From a virus: a stretch of 64,000 bases of DNA. The stretch lies in IMG/VR virus record IMGVR_UViG_3300050034_000187, positions 7,866 to 71,865 of that record. The stretch is one strand, 5' to 3'. The translations under genes and the position numbers were made by a program. Shown in pieces: positions 7,677-36,420 of this stretch. The notes beneath the pieces are model-generated. The model saw only the letters and a list, made by a program, of their open reading frames with translations, had not been told where the DNA came from and searched no databases. Position 1 is the first letter of the stretch, and every line of letters begins with the position of its first letter.

Positions 7677-8608
7677 TATACTTCTCCAACTATTACAACA
7701 TAGCACCACAAAGAGGTTAATCCTAGTTGCTTTGCTACTCTATATCTATGATTTCCGTCTACTATTTCTCCATCCCATACGACGAGAGGAGGTATAGTTT
7801 GCGATGATTTTTTAATATATCGCTTTTCTTTTGCTTCACTGCGAACATTTGAATCAGCGTTTCCTTCATGAACAGAGTTAATAGGAATATTCTTCAGAAC
7901 TGCTTGGCATCCACGAAAATATTCACTAATAAATTCTTCATTGACATAGCTACTACTTATAGATGATATATACTCAGCAATAGCATCAGCATCCTTTAAT
8001 ATATGAGAATATTGATTACTTAGCAATCTAGTATTTTTATTTTCTGTAATATTGCTACTATTCGGGCTAAATGTTCCCTTATTACCAATAGCTGATTTTA
8101 TTTGGGTTGGAGAAAAGACCGCAACCACGTGAGAAGTTTTCCATGGGCCAACCGTATTTATTGAACCGTCTTTCATATTTCTAAAAATAATAGAATCGCA
8201 TCCTTCTTCTTTCGCTTCTTTGATCGCTGCTTGCAACCATGATTCTTCATATGCACCACCAAACTTATCCCAAATCTGTGGGTTCTCCATTTTAAGATAA
8301 ACTGGCATAATATTTGCACCACGAAAATATGTTTTATCAACCGTCTTTTTATCTTTCGTAGTATACATATATCCAGCAAAATCATCTGCTACTTCTACCG
8401 AACTGGTGAAGAAAAAAGCTTGATCGGTATCTTCTGCTAAAGTAGAGGAGCCGCCCTTCTCTGATAAAAACTCATCAAATGACTCGGTTGTACCATGATA
8501 AAAAATAATTGGATTCCCACTAGAATCTTTTGATATAGAATTACCAAACCATTTCTTAAATGATGGATTATCTAAAATACTTTCTCGAATTATTTCATTA
8601 ATTCTCAT
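7676..8608 (-). CDS. MRINEI-tag protein: ART-PolyVal-type ADP-ribosyltransferase-like domain plus ParB/Srx-like domain
   Basis: FKKWFGNS...IFYHGT...FFFTS...GANIMPVYLK...QIKSAIGNKGTF; C-terminal IPPLVV...IVDGNHRY. Confidence 0.72.
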   Translation of the reverse strand: MRINEIIRESILDNPSFKKWFGNSISKDSSGNPIIFYHGTTESFDEFLSEKGGSSTLAEDTDQAFFFTSSVEVADDFAGYMYTTKDKKTVDKTYFRGANIMPVYLKMENPQIWDKFGGAYEESWLQAAIKEAKEEGCDSIIFRNMKDGSINTVGPWKTSHVVAVFSPTQIKSAIGNKGTFSPNSSNITENKNTRLLSNQYSHILKDADAIAEYISSISSSYVNEEFISEYFRGCQAVLKNIPINSVHEGNADSNVRSEAKEKRYIKKSSQTIPPLVVWDGEIVDGNHRYRVAKQLGLTSLWCYVVIVGEV

Positions 8609-26855: not shown

Positions 26856-28454
26856 TCAAGTTAATTTCAATGAGTATCTATTTTTACCACTATCCCAGAT
26901 TTTATAATATCCTTTCTTTTTATTTTTATTATATTCACTTTTCAAACATCGCGTGTGATTTTTTGTATAAGAAAAATCTGGTTTAATTTCTTTTTCAAAC
27001 GTAAATCCGAATTGTTCATATAACTCACCAATTTCCAGCCTATTATCGGCAAAGGAAGTTATTTTGTTATATCCAAGTTTTAATAATGAATTTTTAATAA
27101 ATGAAATAGCATCAAATCCAAATGAATTATTTTTAGCAATACTTACTAACATAGCAGTCTTTCCCGTCTTTTGAAAAATCCAAGCACCTACTATTTCATT
27201 ATTATATTTTGCTATAATATTAATACTTCCAGATGTACAACCAACAATATTGTTGCAATTTATATAATTTTTAACGTCTTTGGGAGTTTTTCCTTTGATT
27301 ACTTTATAACTAGGAGTTATTATAGTTTTCTCGCATGGAGCTAGTATTTCTTTCAAATAAGATTTTACGATCTCTTGTTTATTTTCCCATTCATCTCCGT
27401 AAATTTGAATTAATCTATCATCTTTGATTTTAGCCAATAGGTATTTTTCATGATCTCTTAGTGGAGTATCATTATTGTATTTTTCAGAATGCCAAACCAA
27501 TCCGTGAAATTCTATAGCTAACTTATGGCTTGGAATGTAAATATCATATTCTTTTAGTGACGGCGGATTAATTCTATAACCGAATATAGCATCTGGTGTA
27601 AATTTCTTAATAAAATTGAATATTTCCCCAGCAGGAGATTCTAAAGTTCTTCCTGATTGAGTACATCCGCATGATTTTGATTTTCCACAAGTTACATCAC
27701 CGAATGCTGGAGTAGATATATTTCCACAATCGCAAATGAATTTATATTTTTCTTTGCACCAAAAACTCCAGATATCTGGTAATTCTTGGTTTGGATCTAA
27801 TGTTAGCTTTCCCCATTTCTGTGATAACCAATATTCCTTAGATTCATCATTGCAATGATGGCATGACTTGGTTGGTTTTGATTGCGGAGTAGGTTTTATT
27901 GTTACTTTACAAAAGGGAAGTGTTGTTAAATTACCGCAGTCACATATAAATTTATATTTATTATGGCAAGCCTGTGACCATTCATCGGGTAACTTCTGAT
28001 TTTTATCAAGAATCAATTTTCCCCATTTTTGAGATAACCAATATTCCTTGGAAATTTCCGTACAATGTCTGCACGAAGATATTCCCGCATGCATAACATT
28101 ATCAAACACAGGAGTAAAATTTCTTCCACACGGACAAGTAAATAGAAATTTTTTATTGCAGCCATTCGGCCAAGCATCTGGTAATGGCTGATCCTTTTTT
28201 AATTTAATTTCACCAAAATCATAATTCAACCAATATTCTTTTGGTTTATCATTACAATGCCCGCAGGTCTTTGTATTATATTTTATTTTGGTAACATTCT
28301 CAAATTTAATTACTGCTGTTTTTCCACAGTCGCATATAAATTTAAATTTATTATTACATCCCTTGCTCCATTCATTCGGTAATTCTTGGTTTGGATCTAA
28401 CTTTAATTTTCCCCATTTTTGAGATAGCCAATATTCTTTTAATAAGTTTTTCAT
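26856..28454 (-). CDS. Homing endonuclease-like protein: four KEYWLSQKWGKL Zn-finger repeats, PD-(D/E)XK nuclease and C-terminal domain
   Basis: ~73-aa repeats with CDCG/C..C; YDIYIPSHKLAIEFHGLVWHSE; promoter TTGAAT-17-TAAGGT with ATG 7 nt downstream. Confidence 0.8.
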   Translation of the reverse strand: MKNLLKEYWLSQKWGKLKLDPNQELPNEWSKGCNNKFKFICDCGKTAVIKFENVTKIKYNTKTCGHCNDKPKEYWLNYDFGEIKLKKDQPLPDAWPNGCNKKFLFTCPCGRNFTPVFDNVMHAGISSCRHCTEISKEYWLSQKWGKLILDKNQKLPDEWSQACHNKYKFICDCGNLTTLPFCKVTIKPTPQSKPTKSCHHCNDESKEYWLSQKWGKLTLDPNQELPDIWSFWCKEKYKFICDCGNISTPAFGDVTCGKSKSCGCTQSGRTLESPAGEIFNFIKKFTPDAIFGYRINPPSLKEYDIYIPSHKLAIEFHGLVWHSEKYNNDTPLRDHEKYLLAKIKDDRLIQIYGDEWENKQEIVKSYLKEILAPCEKTIITPSYKVIKGKTPKDVKNYINCNNIVGCTSGSINIIAKYNNEIVGAWIFQKTGKTAMLVSIAKNNSFGFDAISFIKNSLLKLGYNKITSFADNRLEIGELYEQFGFTFEKEIKPDFSYTKNHTRCLKSEYNKNKKKGYYKIWDSGKNRYSLKLT

Positions 28455-28508
28455 AATCATAACCTTATCACATATTAAATGAACATTCAAATGTACATAA
28501 ATAGTATT

Positions 28509-29585
28509 ATGGCAACAACTATTTTACGATCATATACGCATGCGAGTAATATCTTTGAATCAGATAATGCATCATTTTTGCCAAAAAATAAAAATTGGTT
28601 TTTGGTTGCATTTGAATTAAGTACGGTAGCATTAAAAAAATATAAGAGTTATATATCATTAGATGTTGGAATATTAGGAGTATTAGTAAAGACTGTAAAA
28701 TTGCCAGCGGTTGATCTTACGATTGAAAAGAGAAATAATTATAATAGATGGGATCATGTTACGACTAAGCTGACATATAAGCCAGTAGATATTACTTTTT
28801 GGGATGATAATAGAAATGCTATATTATCATTGTGGTATTCTTATTATGATTATATGATTGAAGAAACCAATTATGTAACTGCGTCGAAGACTTCAGAAGT
28901 CACCATTCAAGATACGTTAAATCCGATATATGGAGCTAATGCCAGTGTTTATACGACGGCTCCGCAAGAAGATGGTTATGGTTATGGATTAGATGTTAAT
29001 ATTGCAAACAGGACATCTCCATTTTTCAAAAGTATTAGAATATTTCATATATCAAGAGCGAATGATAGCAATGGTGCGCAATTTACAGAGCATTGTTTAA
29101 TTAATCCAGTTATATCATCATTTGATCCAGACACCTTGGATATGTCCAATGCAGATTTCACTAGTATTAAAATGTCAATTCAATATGAAACGATTGCATA
29201 TAATACTGGATATTTGCCAAGTTCTGAAATTGCTGAATGGGAAGCTATTAAAAGTGATAATTATTATGATACAACCACGAGTCCAAATTCATTGGCAACC
29301 ACGTTAATAACAGCATCATATGCTGATAGTGTAAGTTCCGGATATTACGGAAATGTTTCCAGCACAAGTAATAATTTATCAACAACTAGTACAAGTAACA
29401 ATTATAGTTCTTCTTCGAATAGCAGTGTATTATCATCTGCAACTTCGTCTGAAGAAGATTTATCAAGTTTAGATACAAGTGATACTACCAGTTCAATTGT
29501 ATCAGTGCCAACTGTTTCAAGTAGCTATGGGACAAGTGGAAACCCCCCATCCACTAGCGATACTTCTTCGGAGGATGATGACTAA
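28509..29585 (+). CDS. Second gp19-like tail tube/baseplate-tube paralog with Ser-rich tail
   Basis: LVKTVKLP, YNR...KLTYKPVDITFWDD, LINPVISSF...L.M...I.YE; TAAATA-N5-ATG. Confidence 0.65.
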   Translation: MATTILRSYTHASNIFESDNASFLPKNKNWFLVAFELSTVALKKYKSYISLDVGILGVLVKTVKLPAVDLTIEKRNNYNRWDHVTTKLTYKPVDITFWDDNRNAILSLWYSYYDYMIEETNYVTASKTSEVTIQDTLNPIYGANASVYTTAPQEDGYGYGLDVNIANRTSPFFKSIRIFHISRANDSNGAQFTEHCLINPVISSFDPDTLDMSNADFTSIKMSIQYETIAYNTGYLPSSEIAEWEAIKSDNYYDTTTSPNSLATTLITASYADSVSSGYYGNVSSTSNNLSTTSTSNNYSSSSNSSVLSSATSSEEDLSSLDTSDTTSSIVSVPTVSSSYGTSGNPPSTSDTSSEDDD

Positions 29586-31120: not shown

Positions 31121-31876
31121 ATGAAATATTTCATACAAAACAGTGGTCAAACTTTTTCTTCACTAGAGAGAAATGTATTGCCATTGATTGAGGTATTGAA
31201 TAGATTGGGATTGGAGCAAGAATATATTGGTTATTGTTCAGAGGATGATACTTTAACTGGAATTGGAACTATTCCAGAGAAACATTTTGCATATGGGTCA
31301 ACCAAGATTGGCGAATTGGGAGAAAAGTATGGATTAACGGTATCATACAAACCAGAATGGTTTGATCCTTTGGGTTGGGTTGGTAAGCGGGATGATTTTC
31401 TCAATGAAGATACTAAATTGATAATGGGAGAAGATTTACATAATAATTGGATTTCTAAAGTGTCATTTATTAAAAGTATTGAGCCGAAGAAATTAACTGG
31501 GATGGTATTGGAAGTCGAAGATAAGGAATGGTTTGAAAAAGAATATTATATTGATCCGAATGAAAAGTTGGTAATTAGCCCATGTTGTGATAGAATTGTT
31601 CAAGAATGGAGATTTTTCATTTTATCTGGAGAAGTAATAGTTGGTAGTCAATATAAGCACGATGGCGTTTTAAGAATACGTGAGCCGATTCCAGAATATA
31701 TTTGGAAAAAGTCTCGTATGATGGCAGAAAAATGGTTACCGAACGAAGATATTGTGATGGATATTTGTCTGTTAAATACCGGGGAAATTAAAGTCGTTGA
31801 ATTTAATTCTATAAATTCGAGCGGTTGGTACAATTCTAATATTGAGAAGTTTGTTTTAAAATTGGAGGAAAAATGA
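31121..31876 (+). CDS. ATP-grasp domain protein (R2K/DUF4343-like)
   Basis: FAYGST, FIKS...KKLTG, EWRFFI...IVGSQY, VMDI...VVEFNSINSSGWY. Confidence 0.7.
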   Translation: MKYFIQNSGQTFSSLERNVLPLIEVLNRLGLEQEYIGYCSEDDTLTGIGTIPEKHFAYGSTKIGELGEKYGLTVSYKPEWFDPLGWVGKRDDFLNEDTKLIMGEDLHNNWISKVSFIKSIEPKKLTGMVLEVEDKEWFEKEYYIDPNEKLVISPCCDRIVQEWRFFILSGEVIVGSQYKHDGVLRIREPIPEYIWKKSRMMAEKWLPNEDIVMDICLLNTGEIKVVEFNSINSSGWYNSNIEKFVLKLEEK

Positions 31877-32187
31877 AAACGTGGAATTATGCAGTGAATA
31901 GTCTGGCAGAATATAAAGAGCGTTCCAGCATTCAGTTGGTTGAGCAGCCATGGTGGCTAGCATTTATTGAATGGACTACTTGGAATGTATTTATGCGTAT
32001 TTGCGATGTTCTAAATTATATTGGTGTGGAAGAATGGTGGCATCTATCCGTATGCAATTCTATTACGAATTGGGTAGAGAATCATCCTAAGCATAAAGTA
32101 AACACCTTTGAAGTGGGCTACGACGCGATTAAAGAGCACTTCTATGAAGACAATCAAAAGTTTTTTGATGAATTGGAGAAAAATTAA
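31873..32187 (+). CDS. Hypothetical protein
   Basis: 104-aa ORF, ATGA-coupled. Confidence 0.5.
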   Translation: MKTWNYAVNSLAEYKERSSIQLVEQPWWLAFIEWTTWNVFMRICDVLNYIGVEEWWHLSVCNSITNWVENHPKHKVNTFEVGYDAIKEHFYEDNQKFFDELEKN

Positions 32188-32188
32188 C

Positions 32189-32602
32189 ATGAAAATTAGA
32201 TGCGGCTTTGCTTCAAAAGCATGGGCACGGTCTTCGTCGCCATCAAGCAGTTCATTCATGCTATATGGAATTCATCTTACCTACGAAGAAGAATATCTTA
32301 AACAAGAAATCATTGACGAATATTATAATTCTGCAGAGCTATCGCGTCGCAGGACGCGGTATTGGTATGATTTTATGGACTGGCTTACTACAGATGAATT
32401 CTGCGGCAAGTATAAAGTAGATGTTGCTGTCGATTATGACTGCGGAGATGTTTATATTGGAGCATCCTATTATGATCTTCGCGATGATGAGACTGGAAAA
32501 GAATTTAAAGATAGAGCAACCAATGCCATTGAGAACATTATTACTTCTCGCGGATTGAAGGAACTTAAAATTGGTATTCTGCCTGAAGTAATTTCCAATT
32601 AA
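32189..32602 (+). CDS. Poly-Ser leader protein, variant (MKIRCGFASKAWARSSSPSSSSF)
   Basis: True start at 32189; leader related to those at 35230 and 36037. Confidence 0.7.
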   Translation: MKIRCGFASKAWARSSSPSSSSFMLYGIHLTYEEEYLKQEIIDEYYNSAELSRRRTRYWYDFMDWLTTDEFCGKYKVDVAVDYDCGDVYIGASYYDLRDDETGKEFKDRATNAIENIITSRGLKELKIGILPEVISN

Positions 32603-32614
32603 GAAAGGGATATA

Positions 32615-33712
32615 ATGACTATTTCTAGAATTAAATCAGAAAATTTTAATGAGATTTTCGATGATAGCAATGGCTTATGTATTACTTGGGGAAAAACCAA
32701 GGACGATAATCCGGTAATGAATGAATTTGGTCCTAGTTTGCTAGATGTAGAATTATCTACTATTTGCCATGGCCCTGCTGGTGTTCCGTGTTCATTTTGC
32801 TATAAGAGTAATAATGAACACGGATATACAATGACTCTTTCCACACTCAATAAGATTTTATCAAAGCTTCCGAGAACTACTCATCAAATTGCATATGGAA
32901 TTGGCGATATCTATCCAGAATTGTGGGATGCTTTGAAGCTTACTCGTTCGTATGGTATTGTTCCGAATTTAACGGTGAATGGCGCGAATATGACTGACGA
33001 TAATGTTAAGAATCTTGCTAGCTTGGTAGGTGCCTGTGCGATTAGTCATTATTCGAATGATATTTGTTTTGATGCCGTGAAGAAGTTGACAGATGCCGGT
33101 CTTAAACAAACAAATATTCATAAAATTTTGTCGGAGCAGACAATTCAAAGTTGTTTTGATTTAGTTGATAGTGCCGAGAATGATCCACGCCTTACTAAGT
33201 TGAATGCAATTGTATTTCTAGCAGTTAAACCAAAAGGAAAGCGCAATACTCTTACTCCGTTACGAGATTTGGGAATGTATAAGAAGTTAATGGATTATGC
33301 ACGAGAAAAGAAAATTGGTTTTGGGTTTGACTCGTGCAGCGCTCCATCTGTTCTCAAAAGTACGGATGAAAAATATCATACTTATGTAGAGAATTGTGAA
33401 TCAACTCTCTTTTCTGGATATTTTTCAGTTGCAAATGAAGGAAATGATGCTGAATTTTTTCCTTGCTCATTTACCCAAGGAACAACTTCTAGTGGTGATT
33501 GGACTCACGGAATTAAAATCTCCGAAGTTAATAATTTTCATGATGATATCTGGTATAATCCAAAGGTGGTTGCTTGGAGAAATAAACTATTAGGTAGTAG
33601 TTCGAACTGCGAATGCGCAAATTCAAATAGTTGTAGGTCTTGTATTGTATATGATATTACCCCATGTAACGAGAAAAATAATTTATCATTAGTTAATATT
33701 GATGGAGTTTAA
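32615..33712 (+). CDS. Radical SAM enzyme with SPASM/twitch-like C-terminal Cys cluster
   Basis: CHGPAGVPCSFC (CX7CX2C), NLTVNG, FDSC, CES...FFPCSF, C.C.....C..C. Confidence 0.88.
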   Translation: MTISRIKSENFNEIFDDSNGLCITWGKTKDDNPVMNEFGPSLLDVELSTICHGPAGVPCSFCYKSNNEHGYTMTLSTLNKILSKLPRTTHQIAYGIGDIYPELWDALKLTRSYGIVPNLTVNGANMTDDNVKNLASLVGACAISHYSNDICFDAVKKLTDAGLKQTNIHKILSEQTIQSCFDLVDSAENDPRLTKLNAIVFLAVKPKGKRNTLTPLRDLGMYKKLMDYAREKKIGFGFDSCSAPSVLKSTDEKYHTYVENCESTLFSGYFSVANEGNDAEFFPCSFTQGTTSSGDWTHGIKISEVNNFHDDIWYNPKVVAWRNKLLGSSSNCECANSNSCRSCIVYDITPCNEKNNLSLVNIDGV

Positions 33713-33713
33713 A

Positions 33714-33974
33714 ATGAAATACGAGCTTGGTCAGCGGATCTTTTATCAACGAAAGGGAAGAAACAGTAACAAAGTCTATCACGGTATTATTATGTATATT
33801 GAATATAAGTATTCTTCTGATACTCTTAGTAATATTCATTCGTTTAAAGTGAATGGAATAGAATCAATAGCGTATTATATTGATAATGATCGGTGGAATG
33901 GTATATGTGAAGAAAAATGGAATATCTGGCCGATGACAGAAGAAGAGCATTTGCAATATGAAATGGAGAAATAA
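33714..33974 (+). CDS. Small protein with C-terminal EEEHLQYEMEK tag
   Basis: SD GGAG; paralogous C-terminus with the next two genes. Confidence 0.6.
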   Translation: MKYELGQRIFYQRKGRNSNKVYHGIIMYIEYKYSSDTLSNIHSFKVNGIESIAYYIDNDRWNGICEEKWNIWPMTEEEHLQYEMEK

Positions 33975-33977
33975 CTT

Positions 33978-34228
33978 ATGCGAGTTCTAGACAATGAAGG
34001 AAATGAATTACATATTGGAATGCCAATAAAAAGATCAAATAAATCTTTTTATTGGCATTCCAATATCATATTACTTCTTTTGAAAACGATCCGCCAGTAG
34101 TATGGGTGTGCTGCGGCGCGTTTAATTATTTCACGGGATTAAAAACTTCTAATAATGCGGTATTTAAAGTACCAGCAGTGATCGGAATAACGGAAGAAGA
34201 ATATTTACAATATATAATGGAGCAATAA
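33978..34228 (+). pseudogene. Frameshifted member of the EEEYLQ-tag family
   Basis: ATG frame stops at 34100; another frame gives ITSFENDPP...ITEEEYLQYIMEQ* ending at 34228; span 251 nt, one base short of in-frame. Confidence 0.6.
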
Positions 34229-34229
34229 T

Positions 34230-34442
34230 ATGGATATTGGGTTGAAAGAAGGAGACATGATTTTGGTTACATATAAGACTTCTGGAAATCAAGAAGTTGG
34301 AATTGTGAAAAGGATTGCAGTTAGCTATGAGATTCTTGCGCGTACTACTGGCAAAGAATTTCCAAACAAGAATACTGCAAAGTTTTCGCAACTAGAGAAA
34401 ATGAGCGAAGAAGAATACTTGCAATGGCAAATGGAGAAATGA
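34230..34442 (+). CDS. Small SH3/KOW-like protein with C-terminal EEEYLQWQMEK tag
   Basis: LKEGDMILV...GIVK; shared C-terminus. Confidence 0.6.
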   Translation: MDIGLKEGDMILVTYKTSGNQEVGIVKRIAVSYEILARTTGKEFPNKNTAKFSQLEKMSEEEYLQWQMEK

Positions 34443-34924
34443 TGAGAGAAACTGACAAATATTATTTTTTCTGGCAGCATCGTTTTGGGCAATGGACTCA
34501 GCGAGAAATGATAGATAGTGATGGTATTACTTATAATTGCTGTGAGCAGTATATGATGTACCAAAAAGCTAAGTTATTTCATGATGAAGGAGCTATGCAA
34601 ACTATTTTAAATGAAACCAATCCCAAGGCTATTAAGCATCTTGGCAGAGAAGTTAAAAATTATTCTGAACTTGTTTGGTCGATGCACCGAGTTCCGATTG
34701 TTGTGCATGGTAATTTATTGAAATTTACACAGCAGGAAGACCTTCGAGAGTTGCTGTTGGCAACTGGTAGCAAAATTATTTGTGAAGCCAGTCCGTTTGA
34801 TAAAATTTGGGGAATTGGTTTGAAATGGGATGATGATCGAGTTCTAGATATTAATAACTGGAAAGGAATGAATTTGCTGGGAATTTCTTTGATGACGGTT
34901 CGCGATATATTGAGAGAAGGATAA
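34439..34924 (+). CDS. NADAR (YbiA-like) family protein
   Basis: YFFW...F.QW, CEQYMM.QKA.LF.D, IK.LGR.V.NY, KFTQ...L...LL.TG, EASP.DKIWGIG, G.NLLG..LM.VR. Confidence 0.92.
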   Translation: MMRETDKYYFFWQHRFGQWTQREMIDSDGITYNCCEQYMMYQKAKLFHDEGAMQTILNETNPKAIKHLGREVKNYSELVWSMHRVPIVVHGNLLKFTQQEDLRELLLATGSKIICEASPFDKIWGIGLKWDDDRVLDINNWKGMNLLGISLMTVRDILREG

Positions 34925-34925
34925 T

Positions 34926-35240
34926 ATGCAATATGATCTAGGATATTTTGTTGTTGCTATTGACAAGAATATTATAAATGTAAATGATATTTTCGATAAG
35001 CGAAGCACAGTTAAGGGAAGTATCATCTCAACTGACGAAGAGTATATTATTCGTAACTTTTTAGTATCTCCTCAGAGTTGTAAGCAAGCATATAATTTCA
35101 TGAAGATGCATAATGATTATTGTAAGTTTTGGGAGATTGATATTGATGAGATAGACGATAATTCTCTTTCTATTTTACTGGAATATCCATGTTTGTGTGC
35201 GGATGGAAGCTATGAATTCTGGAGGCGAGATGAAAATTAG
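34926..35240 (+). CDS. Hypothetical protein
   Basis: 104-aa ORF in operon. Confidence 0.5.
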   Translation: MQYDLGYFVVAIDKNIINVNDIFDKRSTVKGSIISTDEEYIIRNFLVSPQSCKQAYNFMKMHNDYCKFWEIDIDEIDDNSLSILLEYPCLCADGSYEFWRRDEN

Positions 35241-35634
35241 AAATGGATTTGTGAGTAATAGTTCTTCTAGCAGTTTTATTTTTGCATTTAAAGAACTTCC
35301 GAGCATAGAAGAACTACGAGAAAAAATCGGGAATGTGTCCGATTGGAATTATAATGATGTAACTGATGTTGCCATTGAGCAATTATATAATGAATTGCAT
35401 GATCCATCTCATTTAATTTCCGAAGAAAATGCAGTTGAAGAAGCTATGTATCAATATTGGCGCGGTGATAAAGGGAAATTCATAAGTACGATTACTGGCC
35501 AAGTATATAATCTTGGTAAAGGAAAAGATAAATATGTGATTATTTCTGTTGATGATCATGGGGAAGGATATTCTGCTTTGGAATCTGGAGAGTATTTTGA
35601 TGAATTTCCTAATATAAAACTTAACAATCACTAG
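35230..35634 (+). CDS. Poly-Ser leader protein (MKIRNGFVSNSSSSSF)
   Basis: SD GGAGG; true start 35230. Confidence 0.75.
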   Translation: MKIRNGFVSNSSSSSFIFAFKELPSIEELREKIGNVSDWNYNDVTDVAIEQLYNELHDPSHLISEENAVEEAMYQYWRGDKGKFISTITGQVYNLGKGKDKYVIISVDDHGEGYSALESGEYFDEFPNIKLNNH

Positions 35635-35641
35635 GAGAGTC

Positions 35642-36040
35642 ATGAAATATTCGAATGAGATGAATATGGGTTGCTCTTATTTAATTGCCATTGATCATAT
35701 TCCAAGAGATACAATTGAATGCGAAAAGTGGATAGGAGAAGTTGAGATTGCCTATGCCGGAGAAATAATTGATATTACTTCCCGAACTGCTTTTCAATTA
35801 TATAATACATTAGTTACGGGAATGTCTCAATACAAAGAAGAAGATATTATTGATTGGATGATATTCTATGCAACTGAAAACAATCAAGAGGCGGCTATTA
35901 TTAAAAAGGCATATACTTTCATTCATGATAATGAAGATAGTATTTTTATGGTAATTGATATTATGTCAATGTCTCCAACGAGTAATTTTGAAAACATTCC
36001 TCATATCACAGAATATGAGGAATATGAGGATTATAGATGA
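35642..36040 (+). CDS. Hypothetical acidic protein
   Basis: SD AGGAGA; 132 aa. Confidence 0.5.
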   Translation: MKYSNEMNMGCSYLIAIDHIPRDTIECEKWIGEVEIAYAGEIIDITSRTAFQLYNTLVTGMSQYKEEDIIDWMIFYATENNQEAAIIKKAYTFIHDNEDSIFMVIDIMSMSPTSNFENIPHITEYEEYEDYR

Positions 36041-36420
36041 AAATTAGAAGCGGTTTTGTAAGTAATAGTTCTTCTAGCAGTTTTATTTTTCCATTTGAAA
36101 AGATACCATCAGTTAAAAGCATTCAAGAAACTGTTTGGAAAGATTGTGATAATGATTTAATTGAAGTTGAATATTATGGATTGCAAGATACTCACGAGTT
36201 AGCAAAACATTTCCACACTCTTTTAACTCATGGAAATATTTTAAGTGAAGAAGATATGTCTGAACTTATGTATTATTATGATGATGCAAAGAGCGCTAAG
36301 TCAGCATATGATTATATAAGCCAATATCCCAACTGTAAGTTCTATCAAGTTGATTTTACAGAAGAAGAGGCGTTAACCGATACTGATATATTTAAAAAGT
36401 ATCCAAACAAAGAAATCTAA
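36037..36420 (+). CDS. Poly-Ser leader protein (MKIRSGFVSNSSSSSF)
   Basis: First ~53 nt nearly identical to 35230. Confidence 0.75.
   Translation: MKIRSGFVSNSSSSSFIFPFEKIPSVKSIQETVWKDCDNDLIEVEYYGLQDTHELAKHFHTLLTHGNILSEEDMSELMYYYDDAKSAKSAYDYISQYPNCKFYQVDFTEEEALTDTDIFKKYPNKEI

Follow-up and report, generated by a model that had tools for sequence, protein, structure and literature searches.

Why does one gene block of a phage encode an enzyme resembling the radical S-adenosylmethionine (SAM) family together with proteins that open with the same 16 residues? The question is raised by a 64,000-nucleotide (nt) stretch (positions 7,866 to 71,865; here called the window) of IMG/VR virus record IMGVR_UViG_3300050034_000187, a 195,761-bp record of a large T4-like phage with a CheckV completeness of 53% and a GC content of ~34%. 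Radical-SAM/SPASM enzymes are known chiefly for making small modified peptides. A preliminary description of the window proposed that the shared start, which we call the tag, is a portable leader grafted onto diverse proteins and matured by the enzyme encoded among them. We show here that the tag is a portable N-terminal element on unrelated small proteins and that it is linked, in both directions, to one radical-SAM/SPASM clade, and we consider it somewhat probable that the enzyme docks the tag of whole small proteins and modifies it covalently.

Tagged genes and the enzyme gene in the window

The genes lie in a co-directional + strand block that spans 28.5 to 40.2 kb of the window. Its order is an R2K ATP-grasp gene, an open reading frame (ORF) of 104 amino acids (aa), P0001, the enzyme gene P0004, three small ORFs, a NADAR gene, another 104-aa ORF, P0002, a 132-aa ORF, P0003, and a 483-aa ORF. 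The features that concern the tag and the enzyme are listed here; the clusters named are groups of tagged-protein bodies, and HMM stands for hidden Markov model.

32189..32602, + strand: P0001, 137 aa, degenerate-tag protein (cluster-4 HMM, 9.5e-12; phmmer matches to 12 cluster-4 members)
32189..32257, + strand: degenerate tag of P0001, MKIRCGFASK-AWARSSSP-SSSSF (hhalign, tag HMM)
32615..33712, + strand: P0004, 365 aa, radical-SAM/SPASM-like enzyme (phrog_7293, 1.9e-81)
35230..35634, + strand: P0002, 134 aa, tagged protein, body cluster 1 (~165-aa family)
35230..35277, + strand: canonical tag MKIRNGFVSNSSSSSF of P0002 (tag HMM, 39.9 bits)
36037..36420, + strand: P0003, 127 aa, tagged divergent paralogue of P0002 (hhalign, 99.3%; phrog_7397)
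36037..36084, + strand: canonical tag MKIRSGFVSNSSSSSF of P0003 (tag HMM, 38.1 bits)

Three ORFs of the window, all on the + strand (32189, 35230, and 36037), start with the pattern ATGAAAATTAGAnnnGGnTTY; 0.06 were expected from shuffled sequence, and three were reached in 0 of 100 shuffles. The near-identity of the starts at 35230 and 36037 recorded in the preliminary description is borne out: the two tags, MKIRNGFVSNSSSSSF and MKIRSGFVSNSSSSSF, share the consensus MKIR[NS]GFVSNSSSSSF, and the first 54 nt of the genes are identical at 50 positions (4 differences). Codons for the same residue are identical at 12 of 14 positions. This places the pair in the top 3% of within-locus pairs, suggesting that the 5′ end was duplicated, or underwent gene conversion, recently. 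P0001, as the same description had noted, starts with a variant, MKIRCGFASKAWARSSSPSSSSF, and lies directly upstream of the enzyme gene, with a gap of 12 nt after its stop. The variant carries N10K and a 7-residue insertion ahead of the final SSSSF; in hhalign comparisons the tag alone aligns, with a 7-residue gap, and the tag HMM scores it at 9.5 bits, split into two pieces. P0001 keeps the half of the tag that docks in the model described below (residues 1 to 9), with N10 to S14 displaced, and may be either a decayed substrate or a substrate held in another register. A six-frame scan and the tag HMM found no further tag copies in the 195.8-kb record. Since the Ser run of the tag mixes AGY and TCN codons, a DNA pattern with TCN codons only matched nothing, and it was a six-frame regular expression that found the tags.

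The tag is carried by unrelated small proteins across viruses

A tag-only scan of IMG/VR with a degenerate DNA pattern returned at least 120 stretches, and the pooled counts below hold among the matches listed. The pool of all loci contained 341 distinct tagged ORFs, with the tag at Met1 in every one. Conservation was highest at M1 and at N10 to S13 (100% each) and was nearly as high at R4, F7, and S15 (99% each), K2 (97%), V8 and F16 (95% each), G6 (94%), S9 (91%), and S14 (90%); two hydrophobic residues follow F16. Past the tag, the 341 bodies formed 99 BLAST clusters with 63 singletons, each large cluster occurring about once per locus. When profiles of the 14 largest clusters were compared in pairs, none of the 91 pairs reached an hhalign probability of 90%, and one exceeded 50%. 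The tagged proteins, which are the candidate substrates, range from 75 to 305 aa, and a single locus holds up to nine. Same-residue codon identity of the tags was 0.43 between loci and 0.53 within loci. Because the codons drift in this way, the tag is conserved at the protein level, and conservation of an RNA or DNA element is ruled out.

Within the window the picture is narrower. The preliminary description saw no obvious similarity among the three bodies, and this holds for the protein encoded at 32189 alone. P0002 and P0003 can be aligned by BLASTP past the tag, to residue ~80, and the P0002-family profile aligns with the whole of P0003 (residues 1 to 127; hhalign, 99.3%; E = 1.7e-20). Thus, the idea of a leader grafted onto diverse proteins stands across phages, although the two canonical bearers in the window itself are paralogous. 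The body of P0001 belongs to cluster 4 (9.5e-12), members of which bear a canonical tag in other phages. Exhaustive searching by phmmer, with P0002 as the query, yielded 307 representative clusters, nearly all of one family; its members are ~165 aa long and end in ..SDxDG..LEHG..F..lPH..ISHH, with conserved D108, E118, H119, G120, and a terminal His. The C-terminal part is largely retained in P0002; from P0003 the conserved EHG and the terminal His have been lost. We considered whether the tag is simply the N terminus of this EHG..HH family and rejected this in general, since the family body HMM matched 21 of 173 complete tagged ORFs, a set selected by the tag; it is true of P0002 and P0003 only. 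Membership of the tagless neighbors at 34926-35240 and 35642-36040 in the P0002 family was likewise unsupported (hhalign, 1% and 31%). No matches to GenBank phages were obtained by megablast of the region or tblastn of P0003, and P0003 retrieved nothing but itself in a word-index protein search.

The AlphaFold2 (AF2) model of P0002, with a predicted local distance difference test score (pLDDT) of 81, contains a three-stranded sheet and five helices. Residues 1 to 13 are modeled as a flexible extension (pLDDT, ~50 for residues 1 to 10), and residues 14 to 20 form strand 1 of the core. An ordinary strand of a shared fold, a possibility that the preliminary description had itself raised against its proposal, therefore does not describe residues 1 to 13; residues 14 to 20 do begin such a strand. 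Neither a profile search of the PDB (E ≥ 0.05), Foldseek (E ≥ 0.28), nor VIA-align (Z ≤ 3.6) found a solved or annotated relative of the P0002 fold, and relatives in AFDB were uncharacterized kin only.

Several tagged body families have conserved C termini of their own, including ..G[AG]GR[ND]G, ..GTR[SY]C, ..[SE]GG[GSD]Y, and MDNFDM..FL..IGV, and one family has CxxC zinc-ribbon-like pairs immediately after the tag.

P0004 as a putative member of a distinct radical-SAM/SPASM clade

The search for P0004 homologues returned 1,329, many of which match PF04055 and/or PF13186. Bacterial homologues score 49 to 56 bits against PF04055 (cutoff, 29.5), and PF13186 is found in part of the homologues. 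Among 62 family members, NCBIfam matches were weak, with none better than 1e-11: the W-cofactor maturase model was matched by 43, MftC by 34, and the SPASM domain model TIGR04085 by 30. The AF2 model of P0004 (pLDDT, 92) consists of three N-terminal strands (residues 3 to 25), a barrel, and a C-terminal Cys-rich domain. Foldseek returned 317 PDB matches at E ≤ 0.001 with radical-SAM enzymes on top, and the nearest solved folds were SuiB (E = 2.5e-10; TM score, 0.61 to 0.67), GDGT-MAS, SkfB, CteB, TigE, anSME (3.7e-7), EpeE, and viperin. The modeled barrel is the partial TIM barrel of solved radical-SAM members.

The unusual cysteines singled out in the preliminary description proved to be a family trait. 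The CX7CX2C motif (C51, C59, and C62) sits where such a motif is expected, after barrel strand 1, and is invariant in 62 of 62 aligned homologues, whereas the canonical spacing is CX3CX2C. C151, C241, C261, C284, C340, and C343 are also conserved in these homologues, and P0004 additionally has C333, C335, and C351, giving the spacing CxCx4Cx2C. The SPASM 7-Cys motif, CX9-15GX4C ... CX2CX5CX3C ... C, binds one or two auxiliary [4Fe-4S] clusters. No RiPP (peptide synthesized ribosomally and then modified posttranslationally) recognition element (RRE) was found in P0004, the first 40 residues of its model being three strands with no helix. The P0004 family so appears, from sequence and model, to be a distinct clade of the radical-SAM/SPASM group that lacks an RRE.

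Tag and enzyme are linked in both directions

The preliminary description suggested looking at whether the leader co-occurs with this enzyme subfamily, and the linkage holds from either side. The enzyme was present in 36/49 and 35/49 tagged viral records; those without it are mostly small fragments, and 16 of the 17 tagged viral records that are ≥90% complete have it. By comparison, among 50,697 GenBank phage records the enzyme turns up in 172 (its base rate), and every one of these is a T4-like phage of Klebsiella, Enterobacter, Cronobacter, Citrobacter, or E. coli (e.g., RB43, RB16, Lw1, and KP15). A leader that occurs independently of the enzyme, which would have told against the proposal, is therefore not what near-complete genomes contain. 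Starting from the enzyme, a tag lies within 10 kb at 65 of 80 loci; all 229 tags share the strand of the enzyme and are mainly downstream of it, and the distance to the enzyme is no more than 3 kb for 128 of 166 tagged ORFs. At three more loci, position 6 of the tag is A, S, or K instead, and in the remaining 12 genomes the tag pattern is found elsewhere in the record (11 clear, one apparently spurious), so that ~79 of 80 enzyme-bearing records hold tags. In RB43, the tagged ORF116c and ORF121c flank the 739-aa ORF119c, and the enzyme is ORF169c; all are annotated as hypothetical. ORF119c (69755-71974) is also annotated as “similar to sll0103.”

The tag also varies with the enzyme. Tags found with a divergent enzyme clade have T at residue 9 in 25 of 33 cases; those found with the P0004-type clade never do, and 328 of their 334 have S there.

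The pair also occurs outside viral records. In bacterial and archaeal assemblies the tag pattern was found in 93 stretches, 49 of which have the enzyme ≤8 kb away; many of the tag-bearing assemblies are metagenome bins and may be phage contigs. Some isolates (Veillonella parvula, Lachnobacterium bovis, and Acetatifactor muris) have just one tagged gene, of 137 aa and with the tag MKIRxGFVTNSSSTSF, which abuts a radical-SAM/SPASM gene (PF04055 plus PF13186) on the upstream side. At ~12 of the 93 loci the neighbors are a STAND (signal transduction ATPases with numerous domains) nucleoside triphosphatase (NTPase) that is Avs2-like (7e-12) and two further proteins, of ~140 and ~300 aa, and these STAND-NTPase cassettes sit beside Abi_2, SIR2, or Macro genes. 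Two examples of the five-gene cassette, each comprising the NTPase, the ~140-aa protein, the tagged 137-aa protein, the enzyme, and the ~300-aa protein, are as follows.

L267:28-5206, Lachnobacterium bovis
L274:152-3384, Veillonella parvula

The extra cassette genes were sought in viral loci, and none was found. PADLOC 2.0 matched no known defense system and contains no entry for such a cassette, returning weak pVip radical-SAM cross-matches for the enzymes and the Avs2-like match (7e-12) for the NTPase; neither the tagged proteins nor the other two cassette proteins (~140 aa and ~300 aa) had any match.

A modeled complex places the tag in the enzyme barrel

A complex of P0004, P0002, SAM, and a [4Fe-4S] cluster was modeled alongside three controls. 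The enzyme/P0002 interface scored ipSAE values of 0.87, 0.87, and 0.76, and the best of the three controls scored 0.00; in calibration, 58 of 80 solved complexes attained the mark applied, as did 2 of 110 mismatched pairs. On P0002, the confidently modeled interface consists of tag residues 1 to 13. Residues 1 to 7 pair with enzyme strand 19-26, where the strongest contacts lie, and F7 and V8 are placed amid enzyme residues 91 to 95, 116 to 120, 138 to 142, and 165 to 169, which are ends of the barrel strands. Further confident enzyme contacts include 44 and, toward the C-terminal Cys-rich domain, 200 to 202, 239, 256 to 259, and 285 to 286. Many of the enzyme positions at the interface are invariant columns, G20, W25, and G26 among them. 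The model, of the kind that the preliminary description had suggested, supports leader-enzyme binding and docks the tag within the active-site barrel.

Proposed mechanism and alternatives

In the mechanism that we favor, the free N-terminal ~13 residues of a tagged protein would dock by strand addition on the N-terminal sheet of the enzyme (residues 19 to 26), and F7 to S13 would pass over SAM and the Fe-S cluster as they cross the barrel. The enzyme would then abstract a hydrogen and leave a covalent change in residues 7 to 15; we infer both the change and its site. Candidate chemistry is an oxidative two-electron reaction, such as an F7-x-S9 cross-link or conversion of Ser to formylglycine, and epimerization is also possible; an oxidative change would fit the auxiliary-cluster architecture and the nearest relatives. 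A single enzyme would serve every tagged protein of its genome, which here means two canonical tags and one decayed one.

Several observations weigh against covalent modification of the tag by this enzyme. P0004 itself has no Pfam PF04055 match at E ≤ 0.1, and its Cys spacing is noncanonical. In the complex model the pLDDT of the partner is only 35 to 38, the contacts common to the runs fall as low as 43%, and the custom alignments and riding ligands depart from the calibration set. Residues 14 to 20 are predicted to belong to the core as its strand 1, which would make part of the conserved run structural. In RB43-like phages the tags are 20 to 24 kb from the enzyme. A genome of 132,519 bp that has direct terminal repeats and is 100% complete, the sole exception among the 17 near-complete tagged records, encodes a canonical tagged ORF beginning MKQRNGFVSNSSSSSF and no enzyme detectable at E ≤ 1e-10. 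Finally, the co-occurrence and covariation counts are not phylogenetically independent. These last three points would be expected of a tag that works without the enzyme, serving as a signal for sorting, capsid targeting, degradation, or translation, and whose co-occurrence with the enzyme reflects shared ancestry of a phage lineage. However, the pair is found in T4-like enterobacterial phages, in diverse uncultured viruses (some >300 kb), and in bacterial isolates; residue 9 covaries with the enzyme clade; the complex was modeled against controls that scored zero; and codon drift excludes an RNA or DNA signal. We regard an independent tag as highly improbable.

The tag might instead be the first strand and loop of one shared fold, the enzyme at most maturing a catalytic residue as in sulfatase formylglycine. 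P0002 and P0003 do belong to one family, in which D108, E118, H119, and the C-terminal His resemble a metal site; the strand at residues 14 to 20, the hydrophobic residues that follow F16 in all bearers, and the conserved C-terminal ends of several body families are in keeping with this idea. Yet residues 1 to 10 are modeled with low confidence in the fold, no known enzyme fold was found, the body HMM reaches just the 21 of 173 tag-selected bodies given above, and the 14 largest clusters are unrelated by profile, which makes a single superfamily quite improbable. Another possibility is that the tag only docks and is not itself modified: it would recruit diverse adaptors or regulators to the enzyme, or the enzyme to them, and the chemistry would take place either on the body or on some third molecule; alternatively, the enzyme would be regulated by the tagged proteins. 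The strongest modeled contacts are indeed the strand pairing of residues 1 to 7 with enzyme residues 19 to 26, and the bodies are folded domains of many families, as adaptors would be. Against this, F7 to S13 are modeled inside the barrel amid invariant active-site columns and not on the surface, conservation peaks at N10 to S14, past the strand-pairing part, the bodies have no common site, and in phages no third conserved gene accompanies the pair. A role in docking only is therefore unlikely in our view.

Neighboring genes and other observations in the window

The preliminary description placed an ATP-grasp ligase and a NADAR protein in the same operon as the enzyme.

31121-31876, + strand: R2K-clade ATP-grasp (PF14243, 6e-16; PF18299; phrog_7313)
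34424-34924, + strand: NADAR domain protein (PF08719, 5e-49)

Both share the co-directional block with the enzyme, but neither is a conserved partner: ATP-grasp is present at 1 of 80 enzyme loci and NADAR at 0 of 80. We therefore treat them as neighbors here and reject them as components of the system. When the neighbor genes of the window were checked at the 80 enzyme loci, none recurred at more than one.

A second, C-terminal tag was noticed in this genome. At least 17 small + strand ORFs (65 to 107 aa) end in [ST][EDNK]EE[YFH]LQ[YW]xME plus one residue; three are in the window (33699-33974, 34052-34228, and 34230-34442), and 14 are elsewhere in the genome (G000:C1, 75888-183400). Their bodies show BLAST similarity in 2 of 136 pairs, and many share an N-terminal h-x-x-GD-Y/x-h. 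The ORF at 33699-33974 has no Pfam or PHROG match. We considered the three C-terminally tagged genes at 33699-34442, directly after the enzyme gene, as its partners and rejected them, the motif being absent at all other enzyme loci.

On the − strand, a 544-aa ORF (26856-28490) contains four tandem ~50-residue Cys-rich repeats (KEYWLSQKWGKLxLDxNQxLPxEWS..C..KxKFICDCG) followed by a C-terminal domain. A 368-aa ORF (28479-29585) ends in a low-complexity tail of ~100 residues, Ser/Thr/Asn rich and then acidic.

Relation to known systems and significance

Literature searches found no publication on the tag or the phage enzyme. The RiPP maturases SuiB/StrB, SkfB, and CteB, which are the nearest solved folds and are SPASM-twitch enzymes whose precursor peptides bear a leader, likewise combine a radical-SAM barrel with a C-terminal auxiliary-cluster domain, and in those systems too a conserved peptide on several substrates, encoded beside the enzyme on the same strand, is recognized by one enzyme. 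Here, in contrast, the substrates would be whole proteins of 75 to 305 aa from at least 99 unrelated families and not short peptides, the conserved piece runs from Met1 with recognition and reaction sites apparently merged, there is no RRE and no conserved protease or exporter with the pair, the motif is CX7CX2C and not CX3CX2C, and the system is phage encoded. The sulfatase-maturing enzymes anSME/AtsB offer a different likeness, since they are radical-SAM/SPASM enzymes that act on a Ser near the N terminus of a whole protein (the E value of anSME was 3.7e-7). Unlike their substrates, the tag lacks (C/S)-x-(P/A)-x-R, the tagged bodies are of no known fold and not of the sulfatase type, and many unrelated substrates would share one enzyme.

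An FxSxx-COOH system is reportedly due to Haft. VMAP/STAND conflict systems include radical-SAM-SPASM peptide-processing modules with FxSxx C-terminal peptides (Kaur, Burroughs, Iyer, and Aravind, 2020; PMC7159879), and this combination is the nearest printed idea to ours. In both cases a variable protein with a short, conserved F-x-S piece is encoded beside a radical-SAM/SPASM gene and STAND NTPases are involved, the bacterial pair described here lying beside an Avs2-like NTPase. The differences are that the FxSxx motif is C-terminal and peptidase released, whereas the tag is N-terminal, 16 residues long, and runs from Met1, with the motif at positions 7 to 11 in 341 of 341 ORFs; that the FxsB model is matched by 3 of 62 enzyme-family members with E no better than 0.01; and that the phage form has no NTPase. 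The F7-V8-S9 of the tag also fits the aromatic-X-X3 unit cross-linked by maturases of triceptides, or three-residue cyclophanes (PMC11499958), which form the 3-CyFE clade; this is a resemblance of motif only. For whole-protein modification, a precedent is provided by QhpD/QhpC and by a methanogen SPASM enzyme that reportedly puts thioethers into whole proteins (PMC13692751); these cases concern Cys thioethers in one dedicated partner, whereas the tag has no Cys and heads many proteins.

The bodies, which are fast evolving, small, and encoded in an early block, and the bacterial STAND-NTPase cassettes together point to a role in host-virus conflict. On the broadest reading, one enzyme installs one modification on the 16-residue tag of many unrelated folded proteins, a phage-encoded, proteome-scale “capping” with non-RRE recognition, and the same module occurs in STAND-NTPase (Avs-like) defense cassettes; we see the case for and against this reading in full as evenly balanced. 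In hundreds of phages, a single enzyme appears to act on behalf of many whole proteins by way of their portable N-terminal tag. The system is present in cultured, tractable phages of E. coli and Klebsiella (RB43, RB16, Lw1, and KP15), where the genes are annotated as hypothetical. Its chemistry, if solved, would add to the known modifications of proteins and might yield an enzyme with a short tag that can be encoded genetically, and it would also provide a handle on a large set of fast-evolving phage early proteins and on an uncharacterized bacterial STAND-associated cassette.

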